Shown in pieces: positions 8,011 through 29,719 of a stretch of 64,000 nt of DNA. The translations under genes were made by a program, and so were the position numbers. The DNA is from an uncultured Gammaproteobacteria bacterium. Lineage in GTDB: Bacteria > Patescibacteriota > Patescibacteriia > Magasanikbacterales > JBBTXJ01. The stretch covers positions 40,522 to 104,521 of the forward strand of contig CAZSVL010000002.1 of NCBI GenBank assembly GCA_964610305.1, read 5' to 3'. The notes beneath the pieces were generated by a model, which saw only the letters and a list, made by a program, of their open reading frames with translations, was not told the DNA's origin and made no database searches. The stretch's first letter is position 1. Each line of letters opens with the position of its first letter.

Positions 8011-8013
8011 TTT

Positions 8014-8122
8014 AGTAACTCGTAACTCGTAACTAGTAATTAGTAACTGGTCATAATTGGCTAATTTTAGCCATTTTTTTATATTTTTCTTTCTAGTTAC
8101 CAGTTACCAGTTACAAGTTACA
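8014..8122. repeat. heptamer iteron region: NGTAACT x5 (8014-8048), palindrome TGGCTAA/TTAGCCA, then inverted AGTTACN x4 (8095-8122)
   Basis: Read directly. Same architecture as 1710-1799 and 12300-12363. Confidence 0.7.
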
Positions 8123-8421: not shown

Positions 8422-9345
8422 ATGCGTGTATCTTTTGCCGCGCTTGCGGCAGTTCTGGTGAGTGGTCAGTACGCCTACGCTCAGACTCCGGCTCCGGCTG
8501 CAGCTGCTGAGAACAAGTACGAGATCGTCCTCGTTGATCCTACTGATGATGAAGAGATCACGGGGGGCGAGCACGATGCGTCTATTGAATTCAATGAAAA
8601 GCTGCCCTGTTTTCCGGTGACTACCAAGCCAACGGCAGGTCTGGAGGTAAGGATTGCTTTTCAGGGGAAGGATCCGCGCGCTCGTAGTGCCACGGTTGTG
8701 GCGCCCGGTGTTTGTTTGGAGCTTCCGGTAGGAGTTCATGGCATGCTGCGTGGTTGCGTGATGAGCGACGGCCATTGTCACGTGGTTCGGGACTTGGGAA
8801 AGTTCACCGTGACTCGTCTGGAAAAGCCCAAGCCGCAGAAGCGGGTTCGTCCCGGTGGCAAGAGTGGCTCTTCAAAGAAGAAGGCTGCCCTTAAGCCGCT
8901 AGAGGTTCCACTGGGAGTCAGCGGCGGCACCTGCTACGATTCGGACGTGTATGAATGCGTGGGCGCAACGGGAAAGAAGCGCTCTGGCAAGTGCAGCGCG
9001 TATGTGAAAGAGGTGATCCTCTGTCCGACCCCTGGCCGCGTCTTGCTTGCAAGTGCTGATCCTCCTGTGGATCAGGCGCAGGCTGAGCGAGACGATGCGC
9101 AGGATGCGCGGATTGACGGACAGAGTGATCGGATTGGTGACATAGAAAGGCACGTGACAAGCCGGGCTGGCAACGACGATCCTCCCGCTCAGGCCGTAGT
9201 GCCTAGTGGCACTACTGATCCGTGTGTAAGAGAACGACTCAAGAGCAGGTTTTTTGTGCCTGATAGGAAGCCGGCAGCTCGCGCAGAAGCTGCAAAGCGA
9301 GAGTGCGAGATTGCTCACCGAGAGCGGACCGGCACCTCTCATTAG
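8422..9345 (+). CDS. secreted protein (signal peptide), Cys-containing, Ala/Arg/Asp-rich, unknown function
   Basis: RBS GGAGAAAAACC before the ATG. Signal peptide MRVSFAALAAVLVSGQYAYAQ. GC-rich relative to flanks. Confidence 0.55.
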   Translation: MRVSFAALAAVLVSGQYAYAQTPAPAAAAENKYEIVLVDPTDDEEITGGEHDASIEFNEKLPCFPVTTKPTAGLEVRIAFQGKDPRARSATVVAPGVCLELPVGVHGMLRGCVMSDGHCHVVRDLGKFTVTRLEKPKPQKRVRPGGKSGSSKKKAALKPLEVPLGVSGGTCYDSDVYECVGATGKKRSGKCSAYVKEVILCPTPGRVLLASADPPVDQAQAERDDAQDARIDGQSDRIGDIERHVTSRAGNDDPPAQAVVPSGTTDPCVRERLKSRFFVPDRKPAARAEAAKRECEIAHRERTGTSH

Positions 9346-9497
9346 AAAGTAAGGGTAATGGGTACTGTCACGCTGTGGCGGTACCCCTCTTTACACCGCA
9401 GCCAAGGTTTGGCTTCGGTGAGCAGAGCAGGAGGAGAGCACTTTGAATTAAGCTATAGCCACAGGGTTTGCGCCCTGCAATCCGAAAGGAGTTTGAC

Positions 9498-10112
9498 ATG
9501 AGGACGTCAACACAAGCGGCGCTGTGCGCAGCGCTCCTTCTGTGCCCAGAGTTGGCACGTGCAGATGAGAGGGTCCCTCCGCATCGTATTGATGGGTTGA
9601 GAGGCCGCGCAGCAGACCAGGAAGAAGAGACGATTAGGCGTAGCTCACGTTACTATCTTTTGGGTGGTACGTGGGGTCACTTGCGACCACATCCGGGTAA
9701 AACGGAGGGGTATCGCACGTTTGGTGGCGTAGGCTTTGGCCTGACCACGCCTTTTTATCGCAGAACAGCTGAGCTAGACGTAGAGCTTAAGGTTGGGCTG
9801 AGCGAAGCGGCGAAGACGGGCCCCGTTGTGGTGGTACGTATGCGGCCTGCGCTTGAGAGTCGTTTCCAGGCAGGTGGCGTAATTCAGTACTACTGGGACA
9901 ACAAAGATCTGTTTGATCTGGTGGATCACGGCTTTGGTGTTGGTGGAAGCTTTCTGTACACGCTGACATCTCGTCACAATGCGGCAGTCATGGCGGAGAG
10001 GCTTGATGCGTCGGTCGTAGCAGATCTAACATTGGGTAAAAATCGTTCAAAGACCGTAAACAAGAACACGTGGTCGCCGGCTTTTAGTTTGGCCATGGTG
10101 TTTCGTTTCTAG
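9498..10112 (+). CDS. secreted protein, possible outer-membrane beta-barrel (C-terminal ...FSLAMVFRF)
   Basis: AAAGGAG 6 nt before ATG 9498. Signal peptide ends ARA. Alternating hydrophobic C-terminus ending in Phe. Confidence 0.5.
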   Translation: MRTSTQAALCAALLLCPELARADERVPPHRIDGLRGRAADQEEETIRRSSRYYLLGGTWGHLRPHPGKTEGYRTFGGVGFGLTTPFYRRTAELDVELKVGLSEAAKTGPVVVVRMRPALESRFQAGGVIQYYWDNKDLFDLVDHGFGVGGSFLYTLTSRHNAAVMAERLDASVVADLTLGKNRSKTVNKNTWSPAFSLAMVFRF

Positions 10113-10117
10113 TCCGT

Positions 10118-10146
10118 GTGGTGAAGTGATCTTCACCCCTTTTAAG
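10118..10146 (+). terminator. putative intrinsic terminator
   Basis: GGTGAAG-TGAT-CTTCACC hairpin followed by CCTTTTAAG, a weak U tract. Confidence 0.4.
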
Positions 10147-10382
10147 CACATATTACTATTCATGGGCAGTAGTATATGCTTACAAGCGGACGACCACGCC
10201 GTTCTGCGTGTGTGCGAGGTATGCAACCTTCCGGTTGCATTGAGCATGGGCCTCACACCACGTAGAACGGCTTGGTCGACGCATGAGCGTAAATTAGGCC
10301 TTTACAAAACAAAGAAGACAAGTAAGCAAGAAACCGTTTCTTGGTGCGCCGAGGAAAGCGTATCAACATGCAAGGAGTTAAC

Positions 10383-12239
10383 ATGCGAAAGCTTTTTGTT
10401 CTACTGAGCGCCTGTATTTTCAGCATTGCCTGCGAGGGTGGGTGCGGCGATAACGCCGTTCCAGGAGGAGACTACGCGATCGCTGAAGGTGAGGGAGAAG
10501 GCGAAGCCGTTGCGGAGCCCGAGCCCGATCCAGAGCCTGAGTGCGATGAGAGTACGGCGTGCGATGAAGGTTTCAGTTGCGTCTCTGGCGAGTGCCGAGA
10601 AGTAGTTGAGGTTCCGGTAAAGCCTGAGTGTACTGACGATGATCCCTGCGATGAGGGCTTCCGCTGCGAGCGGGGCCTGTGCATTGAAGAGGTTGAGCCA
10701 GAGCCACTCGGCTGCACTTCTAACGCGGATTGCCCCAATCCGGCACAGTGCGATAGGGAGTCCGGTCTGTGTGTGGAGTACCGCATTCCGGATCCGGTTG
10801 AGCCGCCGTGCCGCGGCGTGGTGAGCTGCCCGTGTTACGATAACGGAACGTGTGACGACGGCGCGCTGTGCGTGGAGTCTGACAGCTCGGATATGTGTTA
10901 CCCCGATTCTGACAACGATGGCGTTGTTGATGAAGAGGATAACTGTCCGGCGGATGCAAACGGTCCGGCTGATGTTTCCAATCAGGTGGATCTGGATGGA
11001 GACGGCGCTGGCGATGCGTGTGATGAAGACGTGGACGGGGACGATGTTCCCAATGACGTTGACACGTGTCCGCGTACGCATAACCGGGATAACGATCCTG
11101 GCGCGTGCGCTCCGGAGCCTAACTGTCGGCAGAGCGATCAGTGTAATGATGGAAACGCGTGCACGGCAGATGTCTGTACGCCGCAGGGTACCTGTGAGAA
11201 TCGCCCCGTCAATTGTGACGATGGCGTGGATTGCACGGTTGATACCTGCATTCCGGCACTCGGTTGCTCTCATGAGGAGTCGGACGATCTGTGTGGTGAT
11301 GAGCTCTCGTGTTTCTCTTTTGGAGATGAGAGCGTCTGGCTGGATTTCTTTGGTGATCAGCTTGACCTTGAGTCTGGGTGCCAGCAGTGTGCCCCTGGCT
11401 TCCTTGGTAACGAGGACCAGTGTGACGACGGGGATCTGTGTACCCGAGGATCGTGCACGGATGAAATGACCTGCGAGCAGGAGCCTTTCTGCCATGAGAA
11501 TGAGCAGTGCCTGGTTTTCGGTGAGGAGCCGGACGAGGGTGAGGAAGATGAGCGGTTCGCTGCATGCGGAACGGATCAGGATGGAGACGGCTTCTTCCGT
11601 GGTTTCCGTATTCCGCTAGATGAGCGTGACTGCAATGACTGGAATGAGGACAGTAATCCGGATGCTCCTGAGCTGTGTGATCGAACTGACAACGATTGCG
11701 ATGGCGACATTGACGAGGGGTTTGAGTTTGGTTGGTGCGAGGTGGGCGTTGGTGCCTGCCGCCGTGTTGGTCAGCTCATCTGTAGCCCGGATCGTCGTGG
11801 AACGGAGTGCTCGGTCCGCGCTTGGGATCCTGATCCTGAGGTCTGCGGAGATGACATTGACAACGACTGCGATGGCGCAGTAGATGAGAACTGCAATGAT
11901 GGTGGTGGTCCTGGTCCCAATGGTGGGACGGACACCGTGCGTGTGTGCGTTCCGGCTGATCCGGGAGGCACGTGGCAGAGCAGCATCTTTGGGGATCCGT
12001 CCGGTGGGACGGAAAACCAGAATGCAGGCGCCTGTCGCGATGAGGTGACTCAGGAGCTCAATAGGAGTTTCCTGCGCTTTAACGCACGCAAGCCGAGCGG
12101 TTCGTACTGCTGCGGTTGGCATAACAACCCGGACGATGTTCGGGATACGTGTCAGGGACTGCGCGTTTACGTTGACGGCGTTGCTCAGGAGATTGAGTGC
12201 GTCAACGAGGACGGTCAGTACAACTATCGCCTTGAGTAA
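10383..12239 (+). CDS. Cys-rich secreted/lipoprotein with thrombospondin-type-3-like Ca-binding repeats and Myxococcus-type Cys-rich 'metal-binding' motifs
   Basis: AAGGAG RBS before ATG 10383. Signal MRKLFVLLSACIFSIAC. Contains [56 protein letters not shown] and CGDDIDNDCDGAVDENC. Confidence 0.65.
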   Translation: MRKLFVLLSACIFSIACEGGCGDNAVPGGDYAIAEGEGEGEAVAEPEPDPEPECDESTACDEGFSCVSGECREVVEVPVKPECTDDDPCDEGFRCERGLCIEEVEPEPLGCTSNADCPNPAQCDRESGLCVEYRIPDPVEPPCRGVVSCPCYDNGTCDDGALCVESDSSDMCYPDSDNDGVVDEEDNCPADANGPADVSNQVDLDGDGAGDACDEDVDGDDVPNDVDTCPRTHNRDNDPGACAPEPNCRQSDQCNDGNACTADVCTPQGTCENRPVNCDDGVDCTVDTCIPALGCSHEESDDLCGDELSCFSFGDESVWLDFFGDQLDLESGCQQCAPGFLGNEDQCDDGDLCTRGSCTDEMTCEQEPFCHENEQCLVFGEEPDEGEEDERFAACGTDQDGDGFFRGFRIPLDERDCNDWNEDSNPDAPELCDRTDNDCDGDIDEGFEFGWCEVGVGACRRVGQLICSPDRRGTECSVRAWDPDPEVCGDDIDNDCDGAVDENCNDGGGPGPNGGTDTVRVCVPADPGGTWQSSIFGDPSGGTENQNAGACRDEVTQELNRSFLRFNARKPSGSYCCGWHNNPDDVRDTCQGLRVYVDGVAQEIECVNEDGQYNYRLE

Positions 12240-12299: not shown

Positions 12300-12363
12300 A
12301 GTAACAAGTAACAAAAAACGCACAGTGCGAAAAATTGTTACTTGTTACTTGTTACTTGTTAAT
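12300..12363. repeat. heptamer iteron region: AGTAACA x2, palindrome CGCACAGTGCG, then inverted TGTTACT x4
   Basis: Read directly. Shares the core CAAGTWACAAAAAAC with the 8116 copy. Confidence 0.7.
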
Positions 12364-19958: not shown

Positions 19959-20510
19959 ATGAAAAATAAGGCTCACGATCACTTGCTGCTTTTCAGGCTT
20001 CAGACCAAACAAGATAAACAAGCCTTTACGCAGCTCTACGATAAATACTACGCCGATATTCATCGGTTTGTTTTGTTTAAGGTGCCGACCGCAGAGATAG
20101 CCGACGATATAGTGGCGCAGGTGTTTGAAGGGCTTTGGATGTATGTGGTACAAAGAAAGCGTATCATTCACTTTAGGGCGCTGATGTATCGCATAGCAAG
20201 AAATAGCGTTGCTGAGCATTATCGCAGGGAAGGTAAAACTATGGATGTAGCCATAGAGTACGTGGAATTTGATGTAGCGCAGGATAATGACGGGTTGCTG
20301 GGAGTAGCGCGAGAAGATTTGTTGGCCGCGTTTGTGCAGCTTACCGAGGATCAAGCGGAGCTCATACAACTAAGATATATAGAAGGATTGCCCATAAAGG
20401 TGGTGGCAGAAGTAGTGGGAAAGAGCCGTGGCGCGGTGAGTGTTAGCTTGGGGAGGGCGCGGGCTAGTCTCAAACGCATTTTGGACGCAGATGTCCACAA
20501 GAAAAAATAA
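19959..20510 (+). CDS. ECF-type RNA polymerase sigma factor (sigma-70 regions 2 and 4)
   Basis: Region 2 (FTQLYDKYYADIHRFVLFKV...) and region 4 HTH (GLPIKVVAEVVGKSRGAVSVSLGRAR). Confidence 0.75.
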   Translation: MKNKAHDHLLLFRLQTKQDKQAFTQLYDKYYADIHRFVLFKVPTAEIADDIVAQVFEGLWMYVVQRKRIIHFRALMYRIARNSVAEHYRREGKTMDVAIEYVEFDVAQDNDGLLGVAREDLLAAFVQLTEDQAELIQLRYIEGLPIKVVAEVVGKSRGAVSVSLGRARASLKRILDADVHKKK

Positions 20511-20531
20511 CTATCGCAAGGTATACTGACT

Positions 20532-21539
20532 ATGGCGATTAGCCAAAAACAATTAAAGGATTCTCTTGCTGCATTGGGCAGTGATTTTTCTGCAGTTGAT
20601 GAAAAGAGAAGTAAGCAAACGCGAGAGCGTGTGTTGGCTTTTATGGATAACAATCCTATTGCCACTGCGCCAAGCGCATACGAAAGATTGAGATTGGCAG
20701 GAAAGTATATAATGCCGTCAGGCGTCTGGCATTATGCCTTGCAGCCTATAATGGTGGTGGTGCTTGCCTTTACGCTGGTTACCGGCGGTTGGGTGACATC
20801 GGTATCTGCCGCTAGTGGGAGTCTGCCAGGAGATGCGCTTTATACGGTAAAATTGGTTTCGGAAAAAACGCAGCTGCAACTTGCATACTGGTCTGATGAT
20901 CCGCTGGTGGTAACAGGGCTGCAGGTATCTTTTGCAAAAAGAAGGATAGATGAAATAAAAGCGGTGAGCGAGCTCTCGCCGGGAGACAAGGAGGAGCGAA
21001 TAGACAAAGCAGTGAGAGGTTTTAAAAAAGGAATCGCGGCAGTGCGCGAATCATTAGAGACAGCGGCCGATAATAAGCCTGAGCAGGTTGCGGCGATCGC
21101 CAGAAAAATACAGGATCAGGGCACTGATTTGGTAGAAGCCATAGAGCAGGCGGAACAAGCGTTGCCTCAAGATGTGGCTCAAGAGCTTGCCAGTGCAAAA
21201 GAAGTTGTGGAAGATGCAACGGATCAGGCGGTAGAGGTTATTGTGGAGAGTCGGCAACAGGGAGATCAGTTGGTTTCTTCAGACGATATAGCCAGTGTAA
21301 TTGTTGGAAAGCTGGATCGCGCTACGGTAAGCGCAGAGCCAAAAGAAGCTCTCTTGAGCGAGAAAGTTGTGCAAAAGCATCTAAAAGACGGAGAATTTGA
21401 GCAAGCGCTGGACGAGGTAAAACGCATGCGCGCTTTGGTAAAAGAGCAAACTGCGCAACAAGAAGAGCAGGAGCCAAGCTTGCCAGGTGTGCTTATAAGG
21501 GTGATAGAGAACGTAACAAGCACTATAATAGGCGAATAA
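20532..21539 (+). CDS. putative anti-sigma factor (single-pass membrane protein with acidic coiled-coil extracytoplasmic domain)
   Basis: Immediately downstream of the ECF sigma. Cytoplasmic N-terminus, one TM (IMVVVLAFTLVTGGW), then LYTVKL... Confidence 0.5.
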   Translation: MAISQKQLKDSLAALGSDFSAVDEKRSKQTRERVLAFMDNNPIATAPSAYERLRLAGKYIMPSGVWHYALQPIMVVVLAFTLVTGGWVTSVSAASGSLPGDALYTVKLVSEKTQLQLAYWSDDPLVVTGLQVSFAKRRIDEIKAVSELSPGDKEERIDKAVRGFKKGIAAVRESLETAADNKPEQVAAIARKIQDQGTDLVEAIEQAEQALPQDVAQELASAKEVVEDATDQAVEVIVESRQQGDQLVSSDDIASVIVGKLDRATVSAEPKEALLSEKVVQKHLKDGEFEQALDEVKRMRALVKEQTAQQEEQEPSLPGVLIRVIENVTSTIIGE

Positions 21540-21561
21540 CCATACGTTTAGTTAATTATTA

Positions 21562-21735
21562 TTAATCATTTCTCGTCCCTTGTGGGGAGGATTCAGCCGA
21601 TTGGCGGGCTGTATCCTCCTCTGATAAGGGGAGTAAGGAAAAGTAGTTGTGCATTAAGGTCGAGCTTCCATAAGGGAGTGTGCACGGCATTGTAACTGAT
21701 CTTGGTTGCGAGAAATGATCATTGCCAAGATCGGT
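21562..21735 (+). promoter_or_regulatory. structured 5' leader with long-range and local alternative pairings
   Basis: TCATTTCTCG (21566-75) pairs with CGAGAAATGA (21709-18). The latter also sits in the loop of a local hairpin GATCTTGG..CCAAGATC. Internal hairpin GGAGGATTCAGCC..GGCTGTATCCTCC. Confidence 0.35.
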
Positions 21736-21758
21736 ATCTAAAAAAGTCTAAATAACTT

Positions 21759-24700
21759 ATGACTACAGCAATAGCATATTCTAGAAAAGCATTTACGGGT
21801 GTTGTTGTTGCGTTGACGGTACTTTGGTCAATTGGTGCGGCCGCACTGATTTCTCCACTAGTAGCACAAAGCGCAGTCGCTCTAGCAGATCTCTCAGACG
21901 GAGATTTGATCATGACTGACGGCGCTGCAGCAGGGGCTACGGTATACGTGCACAACGACGGTAAAAAATACCCATTCCCTAACGCCAAGATCTACGCATC
22001 ATGGTACGGGGACGACTTTTCAAGCGTGATGCGCATTTCTGCGGAAGACATGGGATCCCTTGCATGGGGCTCCAACATGCTCTACCGCCCAGGCTCACGA
22101 TTGATTAAAGTTCCAGACGATCCAAAGGTGTACGCTGTTTTGCCAGGAGGCACAGTAGCGTGGGTCAAGGATGAAGCAACAGCACAGAAGTTTTACGGAG
22201 ACGCATGGGCAGGTCGTGTAGACGACTTGTTGGCATCTCTATTTGTAGCTGACTACACCAATGATCCAAACATGGATCTAACCGCTGATTCAAACTACCC
22301 TGACGGTACACTTATTAAAGTAGATGATGGCGAAGTAGCTGCATCTGCTTTGATGTACTACTACATTGACGGTGGTATGAAGCGCGCAGTGGGAGACGAC
22401 GCAATGGGACAGTTCAACTTGGACTACGCCATTGAAGTTTCCTCTGACGACGCAGCAGCATTTGACGACGGCGACGCTATGGGATCAGGAGAATTCCTTA
22501 ACCCAGTAGCCGTACAGGAAGGTACAACCACTCCTGGAGCAGACGCACCAGACGAGGTGGTAGCAGACGGAGACCTTTCCTTTAGTCTAGCCGCAGACAG
22601 CCCAACTGCTCGTCTTCTTGACGGGACAGGACTCAACGCAGTGTTGAAGGTGGCTGTAAGTGGTGAGGGTAACATCGACGAGCTAACCTTTAAGAAGGTT
22701 GGAACAACCGCTAACACCAACATTACTGGTATGCGCGTTGTTGACAGTTCTGGCGCACGTCTTGGTAACGTAGTTTCTTCAATCAATGAGGATGACACGG
22801 TTACCTTTACAGGACTTGACCACGACGTTGATGGAAGCGACTCACTTGAATTGCAAGTGGATCTAAACACCTCAGCAGGCGCTTCTGACGCACGCTTTGA
22901 GTTGACTGGTGTTGACTCTGGCGCAAGCGTATCAGGACTTCCTGTTGCAGGATTCTTGCTAGACGTTAAAGACGGTTCAACTGTTGTAACCACGGTCACC
23001 TTTGACCTTGATGGTCCAGCGGATAACTCCAGTGTTCAGCTTGGTAATGAGATTGAAATATTCAACTTCACACTTCGCGACACCGGAAGTAAAGAAAAGT
23101 CAACTTTTGACGGTATAACTCTTTACAACAACGGTTCTGTTACTGATGAAGACGTAGAGGACTACAAGCTTGTAGCTCCAAACGGCGACATCTTGGCAAC
23201 CGTACAGCAAGACGGCAAGTGGGTAGTATTTGACGGCTTGGACTACGAGCTGATCAAGGGTGCTACCAAGTCATTTAAGATCAAGGCTACACCTAAGACA
23301 GGTGCAACCAGGACTATTGACTTGCAGCTCCAAAATGACTACGACTTGAAAGTAATGGGCAATACTTCTGCTCACTACATCCTAGCTACCGCTGACGGTA
23401 GCGGAACTAACGACTCAACCTTCCCTGTAGGTGACGCTTCTGGCTACACCGACATGACTTTGGCTTCAGGTTCTCTAACCTGGAACAAGTCTGGAGAGAA
23501 CCCAACCTCTAACTACGCCGTAGGAGAGGCTGACGTAATCTTGGGAAGCTTTGACGTTAAAGCAACTGGTGAAGATATTGAAATCAGAAAAGTAAGCTTT
23601 GCCGTTCTTGAAAGCACTTCTGGTTCAACTTCAACTTCACTTGACGGAAGCGTCTTTATTAAGGCTGACGGCCAGACACTCTACAGCGCAGCATTTGCAC
23701 GTAGCATGTTTACCGGAACCAACACAGACGTAACTGAGTCAAGTAAGTCACTAAGCACCTTCCTAACCGTTCCTGCGGGAGAAACCAAACGTATTGACAT
23801 TGTTGGTACTATTGGATCCGCTGCAGCTTCAACGGACAGCTACGGTGCCGTGTTTAATGTTGCTCAGAACAAGCGCCTAACTACGGGCGACTTGCAGACT
23901 CCAACAGCTAGCATTGTTAACGCAGCAGTACGCTCTGTGAAAGCAGCAGCACTGACGGTTAACAACATTACCATGGCCGCTTCTGGAACCTACAAGATTG
24001 TTGCAGGAACCAACGGCGCGCTTGTTGGTAAGTATGTGCTTGACGCCAGCTCTGGTGGTGAGGACGTACGCGTTAACAGCATTGTAGTAAGCCAGGGTAA
24101 CGGTGGTTCCGCCGCAAGCGTAACTGACTGGAGCAACTGGCGCCTCTACAGAGTTGAAGCTGATGGATCAGAGACTGCTCTGGACACCAGCAACGATACT
24201 AACACGGGTGCTGCTAACATGACCTTTACCTTGATCACTCCTGAAGTGATTGGTAAGTCAGACGTAGACGGAGTTACCTACCACTTGCGTGCTAACCTTG
24301 CTTCCGCCGCTGGCGCAAGCGAGACCGCCGTATTTGTTGTGGGTAATGAAGGAAGCGCAGCTGTGGGAGATGTTACTGGAAACTCAGTGACGGAGAGCGT
24401 ACTTAATGGTACTTCAACGGGAAGCACCTCACTTGGAAGCACGGTAATTATTACCGCTTCTGGTGGAGCAATTAAGATTGCTGTTGATTCCGCAAACGCA
24501 CCGGTGAAGAACTCTCTGGTTAACATTGGTACTACCAATTACAACCTGGGTGCCTTTACTATCAAGGCAGAAGATGAAGATCAGAAAGTTACTGACCTTG
24601 AGGTGAGCTTGTTTGGAACAGCAAGTCTAAACGATGTTAGAAACGTCCGCCTATACTTGGATGACGCTTCAACACCACTTGCTCAGGTAACACAGCTAAC

Positions 24701-25529
24701 CACGGGTGGAGACAATGCTGCTACCGGATATCACACATGGACTTCTGCTAGCGAGTTGTTCAGAATTGAAGCTGGACAGACACGCCGCGTGAAATTCCTT
24801 GCAGACATTGCAGGAGCTGGTACTGCTAAGCTTGGTAATGATGTTCGCCTTGAGATCCGCGACGCAAGTCACGTATCCTCAACCGGTGTCAGCACCAACA
24901 CAGCATCAACCAAGACCGTGCTTAACACCAACTCAATCACTCACACCATTCAGCCATTTACCGTAACGGTAGCAGAGGCAAGCCCTGCATATCCTGCTTC
25001 TAACTTGGAGAAGGACGTGTCAACGGGATCCCTCTTGGCGCAGTTTAAGATCACTAACTCTGGTTCTGCTACAATCACTACCACGCAGTTTAAGATCTTT
25101 AACAACGGTGCATGTACGTTTGATTCAGACGGTGCAACCACCTGTAACTCTACCGGTGTTCAGTACTCACTGAAGACTTCAGCTGAGAACGCAAACTCCA
25201 CAACCAACTTGGTATCTGGAGAGGACACTGAAGAGAGCTCTGGTGTAATTACCTTCTCTGGTGGAGGACTTGCATCATCAGCTAACATTGTAATTGCCGC
25301 AGGACGCTACAGAACCTTTGGTGTGTATGTGTCTGGTACTAACGATGGATTTGCTAAGGGTGCTAGCTGGCAGCTCTCTGTTGCAACTGAAGGTGATATG
25401 ACCTTTAGCGTGCAAGATGAGAACTTGGGTTATGACGGTAACGTTGACGGTAATCAGGACGACTCTAACACGGGTCTAAAGATGACTGGTCAGCCTAGCT
25501 TGCCATCTGTCACAGACAGCGTAACCTAA
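21759..25529 (+). CDS. giant secreted surface protein (1256 aa; acidic, S/T/G/D/V-rich tandem beta-sandwich repeats), putative S-layer or adhesin
   Basis: Signal peptide (VVVALTVLWSIGAAALISPLVAQSAVA), repetitive Ig-like composition, strong terminator after the stop. Confidence 0.65.
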   Translation: MTTAIAYSRKAFTGVVVALTVLWSIGAAALISPLVAQSAVALADLSDGDLIMTDGAAAGATVYVHNDGKKYPFPNAKIYASWYGDDFSSVMRISAEDMGSLAWGSNMLYRPGSRLIKVPDDPKVYAVLPGGTVAWVKDEATAQKFYGDAWAGRVDDLLASLFVADYTNDPNMDLTADSNYPDGTLIKVDDGEVAASALMYYYIDGGMKRAVGDDAMGQFNLDYAIEVSSDDAAAFDDGDAMGSGEFLNPVAVQEGTTTPGADAPDEVVADGDLSFSLAADSPTARLLDGTGLNAVLKVAVSGEGNIDELTFKKVGTTANTNITGMRVVDSSGARLGNVVSSINEDDTVTFTGLDHDVDGSDSLELQVDLNTSAGASDARFELTGVDSGASVSGLPVAGFLLDVKDGSTVVTTVTFDLDGPADNSSVQLGNEIEIFNFTLRDTGSKEKSTFDGITLYNNGSVTDEDVEDYKLVAPNGDILATVQQDGKWVVFDGLDYELIKGATKSFKIKATPKTGATRTIDLQLQNDYDLKVMGNTSAHYILATADGSGTNDSTFPVGDASGYTDMTLASGSLTWNKSGENPTSNYAVGEADVILGSFDVKATGEDIEIRKVSFAVLESTSGSTSTSLDGSVFIKADGQTLYSAAFARSMFTGTNTDVTESSKSLSTFLTVPAGETKRIDIVGTIGSAAASTDSYGAVFNVAQNKRLTTGDLQTPTASIVNAAVRSVKAAALTVNNITMAASGTYKIVAGTNGALVGKYVLDASSGGEDVRVNSIVVSQGNGGSAASVTDWSNWRLYRVEADGSETALDTSNDTNTGAANMTFTLITPEVIGKSDVDGVTYHLRANLASAAGASETAVFVVGNEGSAAVGDVTGNSVTESVLNGTSTGSTSLGSTVIITASGGAIKIAVDSANAPVKNSLVNIGTTNYNLGAFTIKAEDEDQKVTDLEVSLFGTASLNDVRNVRLYLDDASTPLAQVTQLTTGGDNAATGYHTWTSASELFRIEAGQTRRVKFLADIAGAGTAKLGNDVRLEIRDASHVSSTGVSTNTASTKTVLNTNSITHTIQPFTVTVAEASPAYPASNLEKDVSTGSLLAQFKITNSGSATITTTQFKIFNNGACTFDSDGATTCNSTGVQYSLKTSAENANSTTNLVSGEDTEESSGVITFSGGGLASSANIVIAAGRYRTFGVYVSGTNDGFAKGASWQLSVATEGDMTFSVQDENLGYDGNVDGNQDDSNTGLKMTGQPSLPSVTDSVT

Positions 25530-25566
25530 AGCATCTAGCTTTACTTTATACGCCTAGCGTATAGCA

Positions 25567-25596
25567 AAAGCCCCCACACGGGGGCTTTTGTTTTTA
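25567..25596 (+). terminator. rho-independent terminator
   Basis: GCCCCC-ACAC-GGGGGC followed by TTTTGTTTTT. Confidence 0.8.
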
Positions 25597-25603
25597 GTAC
25601 GCA

Positions 25604-25755
25604 GGGGTTAGGGTGTAGGGTGTAGCCTCTTAGCGTCATCCTGAACTTGATTCAGGATCCAGGCAGGAGTATAAGACGTGCTCTATTTCTACCCTAGATT
25701 CTGAATCAAGTTCAGAATGACAAGTGGGCAACACTACACCCTACACCCTAACCCC
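25604..25755. mobile_element. MITE-like 152-bp palindromic element with perfect 22-bp terminal inverted repeats (GGGGTTAGGGTGTAGGGTGTAG ... CTACACCCTACACCCTAACCCC)
   Basis: Terminal IRs are exact reverse complements. Two internal hairpins (TCCTGAA-CTTGAT-TTCAGGA and TTCTGAA-TCAAGT-TTCAGAA) are themselves mutual reverse complements. Confidence 0.55.
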
Positions 25756-25771
25756 TATACCCTAGAGAAAC

Positions 25772-25800
25772 TTGACAAAAGCGCAAGAATTTGCTAAGGT
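25772..25800 (+). promoter_or_regulatory. promoter TTGACA-17-TGcTAAGGT
   Basis: Perfect -35, 17-nt spacer, extended -10 TG. Confidence 0.55.
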
Positions 25801-25856
25801 AAGGGGCTCCTTGTAGTATGGGAGTAGTTCTTAAACAAATAAAAAAGGAGAGAACC

Positions 25857-27998
25857 ATGAAGACGCCCCTATTGGGTATCGCGGTGCTCTTGAGCGCAAG
25901 CGGATGTTTGCAGTTTGAAGACAGGGCTTTTGTGTGCGAGAGTGATGATGACTGCGCGCAGGGAGTATGCGCCAGAGCATCACTGGATGACACGCAGACC
26001 TACTGCTTGGTTAACCCACCTGATTTATCTGAAAGCCAAGAAGGTGAAGGGGAGAAGCCTTCTGAGGGCGAAGGTGATAATCCAGAGCCTCAAGAGGGTG
26101 AAGGCGAGACGCCAAACGGTGAATCTGGAGGCGAGGGTGAGGGTGAGGAGATTGACCCGCCGGATGGTGAAGGAGAGGGCGAGCACGTCATTGGCGAAGG
26201 TGAAGGCGAGCTTGATTCTGGCGAAGGTGAGGGAGAAGATTCGTCTGGAGAGGGAGAAGGCGAGGTAATTGATCCCGGCGAAGGTGAAGGAGAGTTTGAT
26301 CTCGGCGAGGGAGAAGGCGAAGGAGAGGGCGAGGGCGAGCCTGATTGCCTTTTGGATGATCAGTGTATTGCTCATGATCCTTGTACCATAGGCCGTTGTC
26401 TTGCGGGAGAGTGTCGTATTGTTTTAGCAGATGATAACACTCCGTGCAGCGATGACAATGCCTGCACAGCGGCAGACACGTGTCAGGCTGGCAATTGCAT
26501 GCCGGGCGATGCTCTGGATTGTAGTGATTTTGAAGATCAGTGCAATGAGGGAGCGTGCGATCCTGATTCAGAGCAGGAGAATCCCTGCTTTAGCGAGCCG
26601 CGTCTCTCAGACGAACCGCTCGCCTGTCAGAGTGGGCTTTTTTGCGCGGTGGACGGCGTTTGCCTTGATGGTATTTGTGAGGAGCAGCAAAGAGATTGTT
26701 CTGAGTTTAATGGAGCGTGCGCAACGGGCGTGTGCTCTGAAGATCTAGGGCGCTGCCTTGCAGATGGCGCTCCTCATGAGGAAGATTTATGTGATTTGGA
26801 GCAGCCGGCGCAGTGTCATCATGGTGCATGTCAAAATGGGGCCTGCGCGGTAGTCCGGGACCAGAACGGTAGTCAGTGCAGCGATGGAATGTTGTGCACG
26901 GGCGCTGATAGTTGCGAGGACGGCGTTTGCGAAGGGATTGCCATCTCATGCGGTCATCTAAGTGATCAGTGCAATGAGGGAGTTTGCAACTCTGATACGG
27001 GCGCGTGTGAAGCGCGCGCCGTGGATGATGAGACTCAGTGCAATGACGGACTTTTTTGCACGGTGCTGGACCAGTGCAGCGGCGGCATCTGCTCAGGCGC
27101 TGCGCGCGATTGTAGCGTCGCAGATGAGATCTGCTCTATTGGCGTTTGTTCTGAGGAGCAGTCCGAGTGTGTTGCGGATGACGCTTTAGCCAATGCTACG
27201 CCGTGCGACGATCTGGATGTGTGCACGGGCGAGGGAAGCTGCCAAGATGGCGCTTGTCAGCCCGGAGAGGCGCTTAATTGCGACCATGCGGCTGATCAGT
27301 GCAATGCGGCGGTTTGCAATCCTGAATCGCTAGAGGATGATCCGTGTGAAGCTGTTCCTGTAGATGATGACACGCCTTGTACTGACGGCGATGATCTGTG
27401 CACGGTTGAAGACAGCTGCCAGCAAGGTGTCTGCGAAAGCGGAGACGCTCCTGACCGGGATGAAGATGAGCACATAGATGACCGGTGTGGTGGCGACGAC
27501 TGTGATGATGGCGATCAGACCGTTTATCCCGATGCTCCGGAGCTTTGCGACGGAGTTGCTAATAGCTGTGGTGGCCAGGTAGACGTGTTTTATGAGGTGC
27601 CGACACCTTCATGGTCTGAGTGGGGTCCTGTGGATGGTTTTGCGCGTGTTTGGACAGAGGCTGCCCGCGCTGGAAAGGTGTGTGTAGAGACAATTCTAGA
27701 GAATGCACATGCACGCTCTTCTCAAATTGGATTGCCAGAGAATTGTTCTCTTGAGATTTGCGTTGAAATTCAAAACGGTGATGAGGGAGCTGCCATACGT
27801 TTTGATGTTGTTGACTATGGACAAGTATGGCTTCTGGAAGAAGAGGATGGGGAGTTTTGTCAAAGTCTTCCGGACGATTTGCCGAATCCGCTAGAAGTGG
27901 AAATAATTTCGGTTGGTAATGGTGAACGATATATGTGCAACTTCAAAATCCGCTCCACGCTCTCTGCAGAAGGTGAGGGAGAGGGTGAAGGTCTGTAA
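25857..27998 (+). CDS. Cys-rich GE-repeat secreted lipoprotein (more than 15 ~40-aa Cys modules; C-terminal [10 protein letters not shown] motif)
   Basis: AAGGAG RBS before the ATG. Signal ...LLSASGC. Long (GEGE)n acidic linker. Repeated C-x-D-x-N-x-C-T-x-x-D-x-C-x-x-G-x-C modules. Confidence 0.7.
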
Positions 27999-28004
27999 AG
28001 TAAT

Positions 28005-28035
28005 GAGGTTACCTCACGCGAGGTAGCCTTTTTTA
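28005..28035 (+). terminator. rho-independent terminator
   Basis: GGTTACCTC-ACGC-GAGGTAGCC (one G-U pair) followed by TTTTTT. Confidence 0.75.
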
Positions 28036-28042
28036 ATACTCC

Positions 28043-28126: not shown

Positions 28127-29719
28127 ATGCGAGTACTCACGGGGACCCTGGCAGCTTTGCTGCTGTGTTCAACCAATGCATTAGCTCAGGATGATCAAGA
28201 TGAGTCCTCAGAGTCACTACAAGAGAGTGAAAGCTCTGACGATGAGCCGCAGAAGATTGGTGTGTTGGTTTTGCCAGCCAACAAGAAGCTTAGAGCCGTG
28301 GCAATGGATCTAGAAGAGCTTTTAGCCATGTCATTTAGCGATAAGACGCCTTTTGCTGTCCTAGATGGTGAACAATTGCGCAAAATTGTTGCGCCAGAGC
28401 AGCCGTTTAAAAAGCAAAGCAAGGCCGTAGAGCAGTGCCTAAAGGATCCAGGCTGCATTGCGCCGCTCATGGTCCAAGAAGACATGATTTTCTGGACCGT
28501 AAGCTACGTGGGTAAGAGTGGTAAAGGTTTGCGTCTGCGGCTCAACCTGTTTGATCTGGATGGTAACGTGATTGCTACCCATGATTCTGGGCGCGTAACG
28601 CAAGAGCAGCTTTACGAGGGCACCTTTTTGACAGCAGAAAAGCTGATTGGAAAGCACCGTGGAACGCTCATTGTAAAGACCCCTAGCGATGCGCATGTCA
28701 TCATCAATGATGATAAGCATCCCAGTGGCGAGCATACGTTGTCATTTCTTGAGCCCGGGCCGTATAAGATTGTGGTAAGCAGCAAAGGGAAGAGACCCTT
28801 TGAGCAAACCGTAGAGCTGAGGGCTTCGGCCCTAGAGACAGTAGAGGTTAAAGCTACCGATCTTAAACCTTGGGTAAGTAAGGCCGTGGCTCAGAAACGC
28901 GATCAAGGCATTGCTTATTTCCGCAAGGACCTCTTTGAGATGGCGGCAAGTACGCTTGCAGAGGCGCGAGCCCTGCCGGGCGGGGATCAGGATAGTAAGT
29001 TGCTTTTCTATCTGGCGCGTAGCTACGTAGATCTCAATGAGCTTGCAAAAGCGTTTGAGTCCGCAGAAGCGGCTACCAAAACGCATGATCCAGAAGGTAA
29101 GTTTGGAAAGCGTGCTGCAGAGTTGTTGAAAAATCTGCGCAAATCATACGGAAGCGTCATCTTTAAGCGTTTGGCTAGCTCCACTGTAAAACAGGGCTAC
29201 ATCTATCTTGATGACATTGCCGGGCTCATTGGAAAGGAAAAGAAAGAGCAGTTTAGAAAACTGCGGAATCGTCTGAAGAGCCAAGCGGTAGATTTGAGCA
29301 CAAGTGGGTACGTATACTTTTTGCCCTACGGCCAGTATCGCGCCAATGGGGTTCCCTTTACGGTAGAGCAGGGAAGTCTGCCAGAGGTAGAGATTCTGCT
29401 AGAGGCCACGCCTCGTGAGCAGGAGTCAAAGGGTCTTTCTGTGCCGGTCATGGTAGCCTCTGGGGCTGGCGCTGCGCTGCTCACGGCATTTGGCATGCAT
29501 TTGATGGCTGTTTCAGAAGCTGAGGATTATGAAACAGCAGGAAATCAAAAGAAGGCTTTTGAGGCGCGCGATTGTGCAGAGTTTTATCAGAAAACAGCCT
29601 TTGTTGGCTACGGTTTAGCCGCCGTCGCTGGAGGTGTTGCTGGATGGCTCTGGTGGCAGGACCAAAGCAGAAGCGTTGTTGCGCTTCCTGGTCAGCTGAT
29701 TTTGCAGGGATCATTTTAG
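28127..29719 (+). CDS. secreted PEGA-domain protein with TPR-like helical region and C-terminal TM segment
   Basis: AAAGGAGGGG RBS before the ATG. Signal ...STNALAQ. PEGA-like block GTLIVKTPSDAHVIINDD...YKIVVSSKGKRPFEQTVEL. Confidence 0.6.
   Translation: MRVLTGTLAALLLCSTNALAQDDQDESSESLQESESSDDEPQKIGVLVLPANKKLRAVAMDLEELLAMSFSDKTPFAVLDGEQLRKIVAPEQPFKKQSKAVEQCLKDPGCIAPLMVQEDMIFWTVSYVGKSGKGLRLRLNLFDLDGNVIATHDSGRVTQEQLYEGTFLTAEKLIGKHRGTLIVKTPSDAHVIINDDKHPSGEHTLSFLEPGPYKIVVSSKGKRPFEQTVELRASALETVEVKATDLKPWVSKAVAQKRDQGIAYFRKDLFEMAASTLAEARALPGGDQDSKLLFYLARSYVDLNELAKAFESAEAATKTHDPEGKFGKRAAELLKNLRKSYGSVIFKRLASSTVKQGYIYLDDIAGLIGKEKKEQFRKLRNRLKSQAVDLSTSGYVYFLPYGQYRANGVPFTVEQGSLPEVEILLEATPREQESKGLSVPVMVASGAGAALLTAFGMHLMAVSEAEDYETAGNQKKAFEARDCAEFYQKTAFVGYGLAAVAGGVAGWLWWQDQSRSVVALPGQLILQGSF

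Follow-up and report, generated by a model that had tools for sequence, protein, structure and literature searches.

Large, very cysteine-rich exported proteins have been described in the CPR group Peribacteria, where they average 1,655 aa and are encoded in a 14-gene cluster. They carry signal peptides, are predicted to be extracellular and contain 7.2% Cys; variation between strains was noted, and attachment to other cells has been proposed as their function (Anantharaman et al., 2016; PMC4736985). The lipoprotein considered here is encoded at 25857-27998 of a 64-kb window (the whole stretch of DNA that was analysed). It resembles the Peribacteria proteins in its CPR groundwater source, its signal peptide and its high Cys content (9.6%), and both come from genomes that invest heavily in envelope glycans. 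The Peribacteria proteins, however, belong to a different CPR phylum, and their description mentions no lipobox, Gly-Glu tether, MopE motif or terminal domain of the kind found in the lipoprotein.

A ~55-aa, 8-Cys super-repeat is shared with proteins of the PF00526 (Dicty_CTDC) and PF23416 (DUF7107) type from Myxococcota, Bradymonadaceae, Binatia and Planctomycetes, for example P0002 and P0033, which are 30-46% identical to the lipoprotein across 50-73% of the query and are acidic too. P0033 also shares the lipobox, and both P0002 and P0033 share a MopE-like CDGxDNDC motif. In these relatives, the cysteine array is a spacer for other domains; they belong to different phyla, have no (GE)n tether and carry at their ends PKD with a further domain, or enzymes, instead of the orphan domain of the lipoprotein.

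The PF11617 motif is frequent in Myxococcus proteins. The likeness of the lipoprotein to MopE, a surface protein of Methylococcus capsulatus, consists of one copy of this motif and a weak profile similarity to residues 5-46 of the MopE* chain 2vov_A; it does not extend to the remainder of MopE. The motif is internal in the lipoprotein and not C-terminal, its second acidic loop is degenerate, and metal binding by it is called 'putative' in Pfam itself. No sequence-level relative with a solved structure was found among PDB chains. The best structural match to the lipoprotein model is the heavy subunit of the Gal/GalNAc lectin of Entamoeba histolytica (9gjf, 9gjg), a Cys-rich surface adhesin, with Foldseek E-values of 2e-4 to 3e-4 over 415-440 columns. 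The lectin is eukaryotic and only 14-15% identical, with TM-scores of 0.07-0.10, and what it shares with the model is the overall architecture, which is no evidence of a common ancestor.

The gene encodes a lipoprotein with the following parts:

25857..27998, plus strand: coding sequence, 713 aa plus stop, an intact ORF
25857..25907, plus strand: signal peptide with lipobox, residues 1-17, LSASG followed by C17 (pattern check)
25935..26006, plus strand: N-terminal 4-Cys mini-module (C27, C33, C38, C50), 5' of the linker (sequence, orthologue alignment)
26037..26342, plus strand: Gly-Glu acidic linker, residues 61-162, 102 aa (composition, DNA tandem repeats)
26346..27446, plus strand: cysteine array, residues 164-530, 367 residues with 53 Cys (sequence, AF2, homologues)
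27498..27584, plus strand: PF11617 (Cu-binding_MopE, 'putative metal-binding motif'), residues 548-576 (Pfam, alignment)
27588..27968, plus strand: orphan C-terminal domain, residues 578-704, 127 aa, with 5 conserved Cys, predicted all-beta sandwich
27969..27995, plus strand: C-terminal tail, missing from orthologues

The reading frame is intact with the ATG chosen in the earlier note, and gene calling on an independent Logan contig gives the identical protein. No Shine-Dalgarno site precedes the alternative ATG at 25818. The signals that flank the gene are these:

25566..25595, plus strand: terminator-like hairpin, AAAAGCCCCC-ACAC-GGGGGCTTTT plus a T run, which ends the upstream 1256-aa gene (read directly in the sequence)
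25603..25763, strand not given: long imperfect palindrome, the 'MITE-like element' of the earlier note
25772..25800, plus strand: weak promoter-like site, TTGACA-17 nt-TAAGGT (spotted by eye)
25845..25850, plus strand: Shine-Dalgarno AAGGAG, 6 nt 5' of the ATG at 25857
28005..28036, plus strand: terminator-like hairpin of 11 pairs plus a T run, right after the lipoprotein stop codon (consensus scan)

The hairpin after the stop codon makes the gene look monocistronic. The upstream hairpin was not among the terminators found by the consensus scan, and the promoter-like site is a suggestion only because it lies below the threshold of that scan. The palindrome has outer arms of 23 nt, 100% complementary, in which GGGTGTA-type heptamers form inverted arrays, and its inner part is a 29-nt palindrome (90% complementary); folded as RNA, it reaches -94.3 kcal/mol (z = -11.1). 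It is present in a single copy within the window, Logan contigs from the same organism break within it, and a metagenome scan with one arm gave at least 120 matches, which are mostly unrelated and telomere-like, leaving its interpretation as a MITE unsupported. Unusual repeats had been proposed to precede both this gene and gene 10383-12239. They do exist, but the GTAAC arrays at 8013-8121 and 12300-12361 bracket a three-gene block containing gene 10383 rather than directly preceding it. The GC3 of that block (8422-12239) is 0.54-0.59, unlike that of the lipoprotein gene (0.47).

The N-terminus agrees with its assignment as a lipoprotein: through Cys17 and K2 it satisfies a PROSITE-type rule, {DERK}(6)-[LIVMFWSTAG](2)-[LIVMFYSTAGCQ]-[AGS]-C, with the Cys in the first 35 residues and K/R near the N-terminus. 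A lipobox is also found in the colinear orthologues P0001 and P0121 (47-48% identity), in the 10383-12239 protein and in the Bradymonadaceae relative P0033. Judging from this pattern, the mature protein would sit, lipidated at Cys17, on the outer face of the cytoplasmic membrane; Lgt has been reported for another CPR lineage (PMC4736985). The 4-Cys mini-module is missing from P0001 and P0121. It is followed by an acidic linker, correctly recognized before but shorter than the ~120 aa then given, with 66% G+E, a net charge of -41 and nine (GE)2-6 runs, encoded by degenerate 27/57-nt tandem repeats. Its length varies among orthologues, and even two nearly identical strains differ in it by 22 aa, although there the site lies at a contig end. 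Over the whole protein, D+E amount to 178 (25% of residues) vs 21 K+R, for a net charge of about -157. Cys makes up 9.6% overall and 14.4% of the array, vs 0.2-1.9% of neighbouring proteins. The total of 67 Cys comes to 66, an even number, once the lipidated Cys is left out.

The array consists of 13 beta-hairpin modules with four Cys each. They alternate between two types, with eight of type A (C-x5-C-x5-C-x4-C, including one variant) and five of type B (C-x6-C-x4-C-x6-9-C). A and B together form the super-repeat, of which there are five complete copies plus partial ones. The earlier note had missed this alternation and counted more than 15 copies of one motif; in its strict form, C-x-D-x-N-x-C-T-x-x-D-x-C-x-x-G-x-C, that motif occurs once, at residue 197. 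In the AF2 model, the 13 hairpins form an elongated chain with pLDDT mostly 80-98, dipping to 68-79 at residues ~278-317, and all array Cys from C222 onward are conserved in P0001 and P0121.

Searched without its GE linker, the protein has 402 matches at E <= 1e-3 (best 3.5e-108), so the similarity extends beyond low complexity. These homologues are found mostly in Myxococcota-type bacteria, with E-values down to 1e-82 outside the orthologue family, and their arrays are fused to PKD, CBM96, PPC, dockerin, NHL, S8 protease, GDSL lipase and beta-propeller domains. By analogy with these relatives and their other terminal domains, the array is proposed to be a spacer. Pfam and NCBIfam scans of the whole protein returned no match, and in scans of its segments PF11617 was the sole one. 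EGF and DSL models, which had been suggested as search targets, gave no Pfam match at E <= 10 in the whole protein or its segments, nor did PF13948 (Myxococcus cysteine-rich repeat) or, in NCBIfam, TIGR02232 match either. PF00526 (cut-off 27 bits) had no match at E <= 10, whether the query was the whole protein, its array or one super-repeat, and PF23416 scored 13.9 bits (E 0.069) against one super-repeat, below its 24.6-bit threshold. The homologues P0020 and P0025 pass PF23416, and the link of the array to PF00526 is only transitive, since it is the homologue P0009 that scores 87.7 bits while the lipoprotein itself has no match.

The MopE motif had been recognized before and placed at the end of the protein. 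The motif is confirmed as PF11617, but ~137 residues lie C-terminal to it, comprising a conserved domain, overlooked in the earlier note, and the tail. Among 1.84 billion representatives, the domain has relatives in just two other proteins; across the three orthologues it is 33-48% identical and has 5 invariant Cys. It has no Pfam, NCBIfam or significant PHROG match. Two models agree on an all-beta topology, and residues ~540-609, between rod and tip, are poorly predicted (pLDDT 30-45). The predicted fold resembles CBM6-type modules and receptor-binding domains of phage tips and tail fibres (5fui, 1uxz, lambda J 8iyk_J) with 5-15% identity, at the score level of a generic beta-sandwich and from a model of moderate to low confidence. 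The domain also gave a profile match to P0122 (E 1e-7), which was put down to a weak similarity of beta-strands and not taken as homology; P0122 looks like a tandem Ig-type repeat protein, and the match is repeated along it. The idea that the C-terminal motif is a sorting signal does not hold: the C-terminus has no hydrophobic stretch or helix, and no NCBIfam model at all matched the whole protein or its segments, hence none of MYXO-CTERM or another C-terminal sorting signal.

Taken together, we favour, with moderate confidence, the reading that the gene encodes a stalked adhesin or receptor-binding surface protein of an episymbiotic Patescibacteria (CPR, Candidatus Uhrbacteria-like) cell, the episymbiotic lifestyle being assumed from the phylum. 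Cys17 would lipid-anchor the protein at the outer face of the cytoplasmic membrane, and the ~100-aa polyanionic Gly-Glu tether would pass the rod through the wall or S-layer zone. The 66 non-lipidated Cys would pair as disulfides and stiffen the array into a rod, which would serve as spacer between the tether and the terminal domain. The terminal beta-sandwich would be the working end, its ligand, most likely a glycan, being carried by another cell or surface. The extended surface fibre and the lipoprotein envisaged in the earlier note find support in the lipobox, in the polyanionic and disordered linker, in the high-confidence hairpin chain of the AF2 model and in the cell-surface gene neighbourhood, which includes the following genes:

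19959..25529, plus strand: conserved upstream unit of ECF sigma/anti-sigma-like type with a surface protein (Pfam, synteny), made up of the next three genes
19959-20510, plus strand: ECF sigma factor (Pfam)
20532-21539, plus strand: DUF5667 protein (Pfam)
21759-25529, plus strand: 1256-aa Cys-poor surface protein
28127..29719, plus strand: PEGA-domain partner gene (Pfam PEGA 22.1 bits), whose product has a signal at the N-terminus and hydrophobic segments towards the C-terminus

Homologues of the upstream-unit neighbour carry the names Ca. Uhrbacteria or Patescibacteria, which puts the organism among the Patescibacteria close to Ca. Uhrbacteria, a CPR origin that the earlier note had missed. 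The 1256-aa protein shares 59% identity with its counterpart beside P0001, and the order ECF sigma factor, DUF5667 protein, ~1260-aa surface protein is kept in L004, L005, L006 and L007. The PEGA gene product is 34% identical to that of the gene adjoining P0121 in L004, and in L001 a PEGA gene again adjoins the lipoprotein gene; none was found beside the distant relatives P0033 and P0002, and a general lipoprotein-PEGA partnership was rejected on these grounds.

This neighbourhood also lends itself to an explanation directed at the cell itself, in which the tip binds the own glycan or the 1256-aa surface-layer protein and the lipoprotein is a strut that sets the distance between layer and membrane. 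It would account for the synteny of the lipoprotein gene with the sigma/DUF5667/~1260-aa unit and the PEGA gene, conserved in three to four related genomes, for the location within a large glycan-synthesis cluster (five Wzy_C proteins, many glycosyltransferases and sugar-nucleotide enzymes) and for the CBM-like fold predicted for the tip. The close relatives L006 and L007, however, keep the unit with its 1270-aa protein while both the lipoprotein and the PEGA gene are missing, so the big surface protein does not need the lipoprotein. Tight co-expression is also argued against by the gene's own terminators and by its inversion relative to its neighbours in other lineages (L002/L004). We regard such an envelope tether as unlikely, though worth keeping in mind. 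The presence of the lipoprotein gene in some relatives and its absence at the same position in others counts for the adhesin reading, being as expected of an accessory surface or host-interaction gene.

A more elaborate form of the adhesin reading is, as a whole, slightly less credible still. It describes a host-recognition adhesin of an ultra-small, episymbiotic Uhrbacteria-like bacterium, in which a lipid-anchored rod with ~33 disulfides, its array acquired from predatory Myxococcota/Bradymonadota-type bacteria, carries a lineage-specific glycan-binding tip. The adhesin would be encoded by a single-gene cassette that can invert, varies among strains and lies between hairpin elements of a surface-glycan island. 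Flanking inverted repeats that might explain the inversion relative to L002/L004 were limited to short, weak pairs. CPR bacteria usually have neither quinones nor respiratory chains, and the formation of 33 disulfides is therefore a problem for the favoured reading too; if the more elaborate reading were true, the protein would depend for its folding on an oxidative pathway as yet undescribed in quinone-lacking organisms.

Doubtful to a somewhat greater degree is a fibre that mainly binds or buffers Ca2+ or other metals at the cell surface, through the polyanion and the MopE motif or through Cys thiolates. The charge of the protein (about -157, with D+E at 25% of residues) and the groundwater ecology would suit it, and PF11617, which the earlier note had guessed, scores 34.5 bits (E 2.5e-8) in an isolated 49-aa segment, above the gathering threshold of 27 bits, with the weak match to 2vov_A in addition; the miss in the whole-protein scan may stem from the composition-bias filter of HMMER. 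As had been pointed out, the motif is shared with the sister protein 10383-12239, which scores 32.3 bits for PF11617, aligns to the lipoprotein across the same motif and has thrombospondin type-3 Ca-binding repeats and two MopE stretches. The lipoprotein has only one copy, however, and although its four Cys and first acidic stretch are kept, the acidic second half is degenerate (DNDCDG to ANSCGG) and lacks the complete form CDGxDNDCDGxxD. The orthologues P0001 and P0121, which reach 32.0 and 40.5 bits as whole proteins, retain it as CDGLDNDCDGE(T/V)D. Beyond this motif, the case for the Ca or metal binding proposed earlier comes down to bulk negative charge and is weak. The copper site of MopE reportedly lies outside the PF11617 motif. 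The C-x5-C-x5-C-x4-C spacing and the predicted beta-hairpins fit disulfide knots rather than CxxC-type metal sites, and bulk ion binding needs no conserved, family-specific terminal domain.

That the gene is non-functional, either a chance ORF in low-complexity DNA or the decaying remnant of a horizontally acquired Myxococcota gene, as might be suspected from the empty whole-protein scans, its G+C of 54% vs a window average of 46% and its absence from some relatives, is very improbable and already essentially refuted by the intact 713-codon frame with its Shine-Dalgarno site and terminators, by orthologues that retain domains and cysteines in genomes of differing G+C, by solely synonymous changes between two close strains (5 synonymous and 0 non-synonymous differences in 415 codons), by homology down to E 1e-108 without the GE linker and by a GC3 of 0.47 inside the 0.39-0.51 of its neighbours. 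Because its GC3 lies within that range, the raised G+C stems from amino-acid composition, and recent horizontal transfer, considered on compositional grounds, was rejected.

The stalked-adhesin reading bears on the biology of the CPR bacteria in several ways. In the CPR/Patescibacteria, surface molecules for host attachment are known for a few cultivated Saccharibacteria only, and the lipoprotein would add a compact and clearly bounded candidate from another lineage, one without cultivated members; its division into anchor, tether, rod and tip lends itself to expression and testing. The result is at the level of annotation, and the class of Cys-rich extracellular proteins had been noticed in CPR genomes in 2016 (PMC4736985). 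The lipoprotein may also serve as a simple example of how the widespread, uncharacterised Dicty_CTDC/DUF7107-like cysteine arrays of bacteria act as spacers, and it raises the question of how dozens of extracellular disulfides would be formed in an organism with minimal redox machinery.

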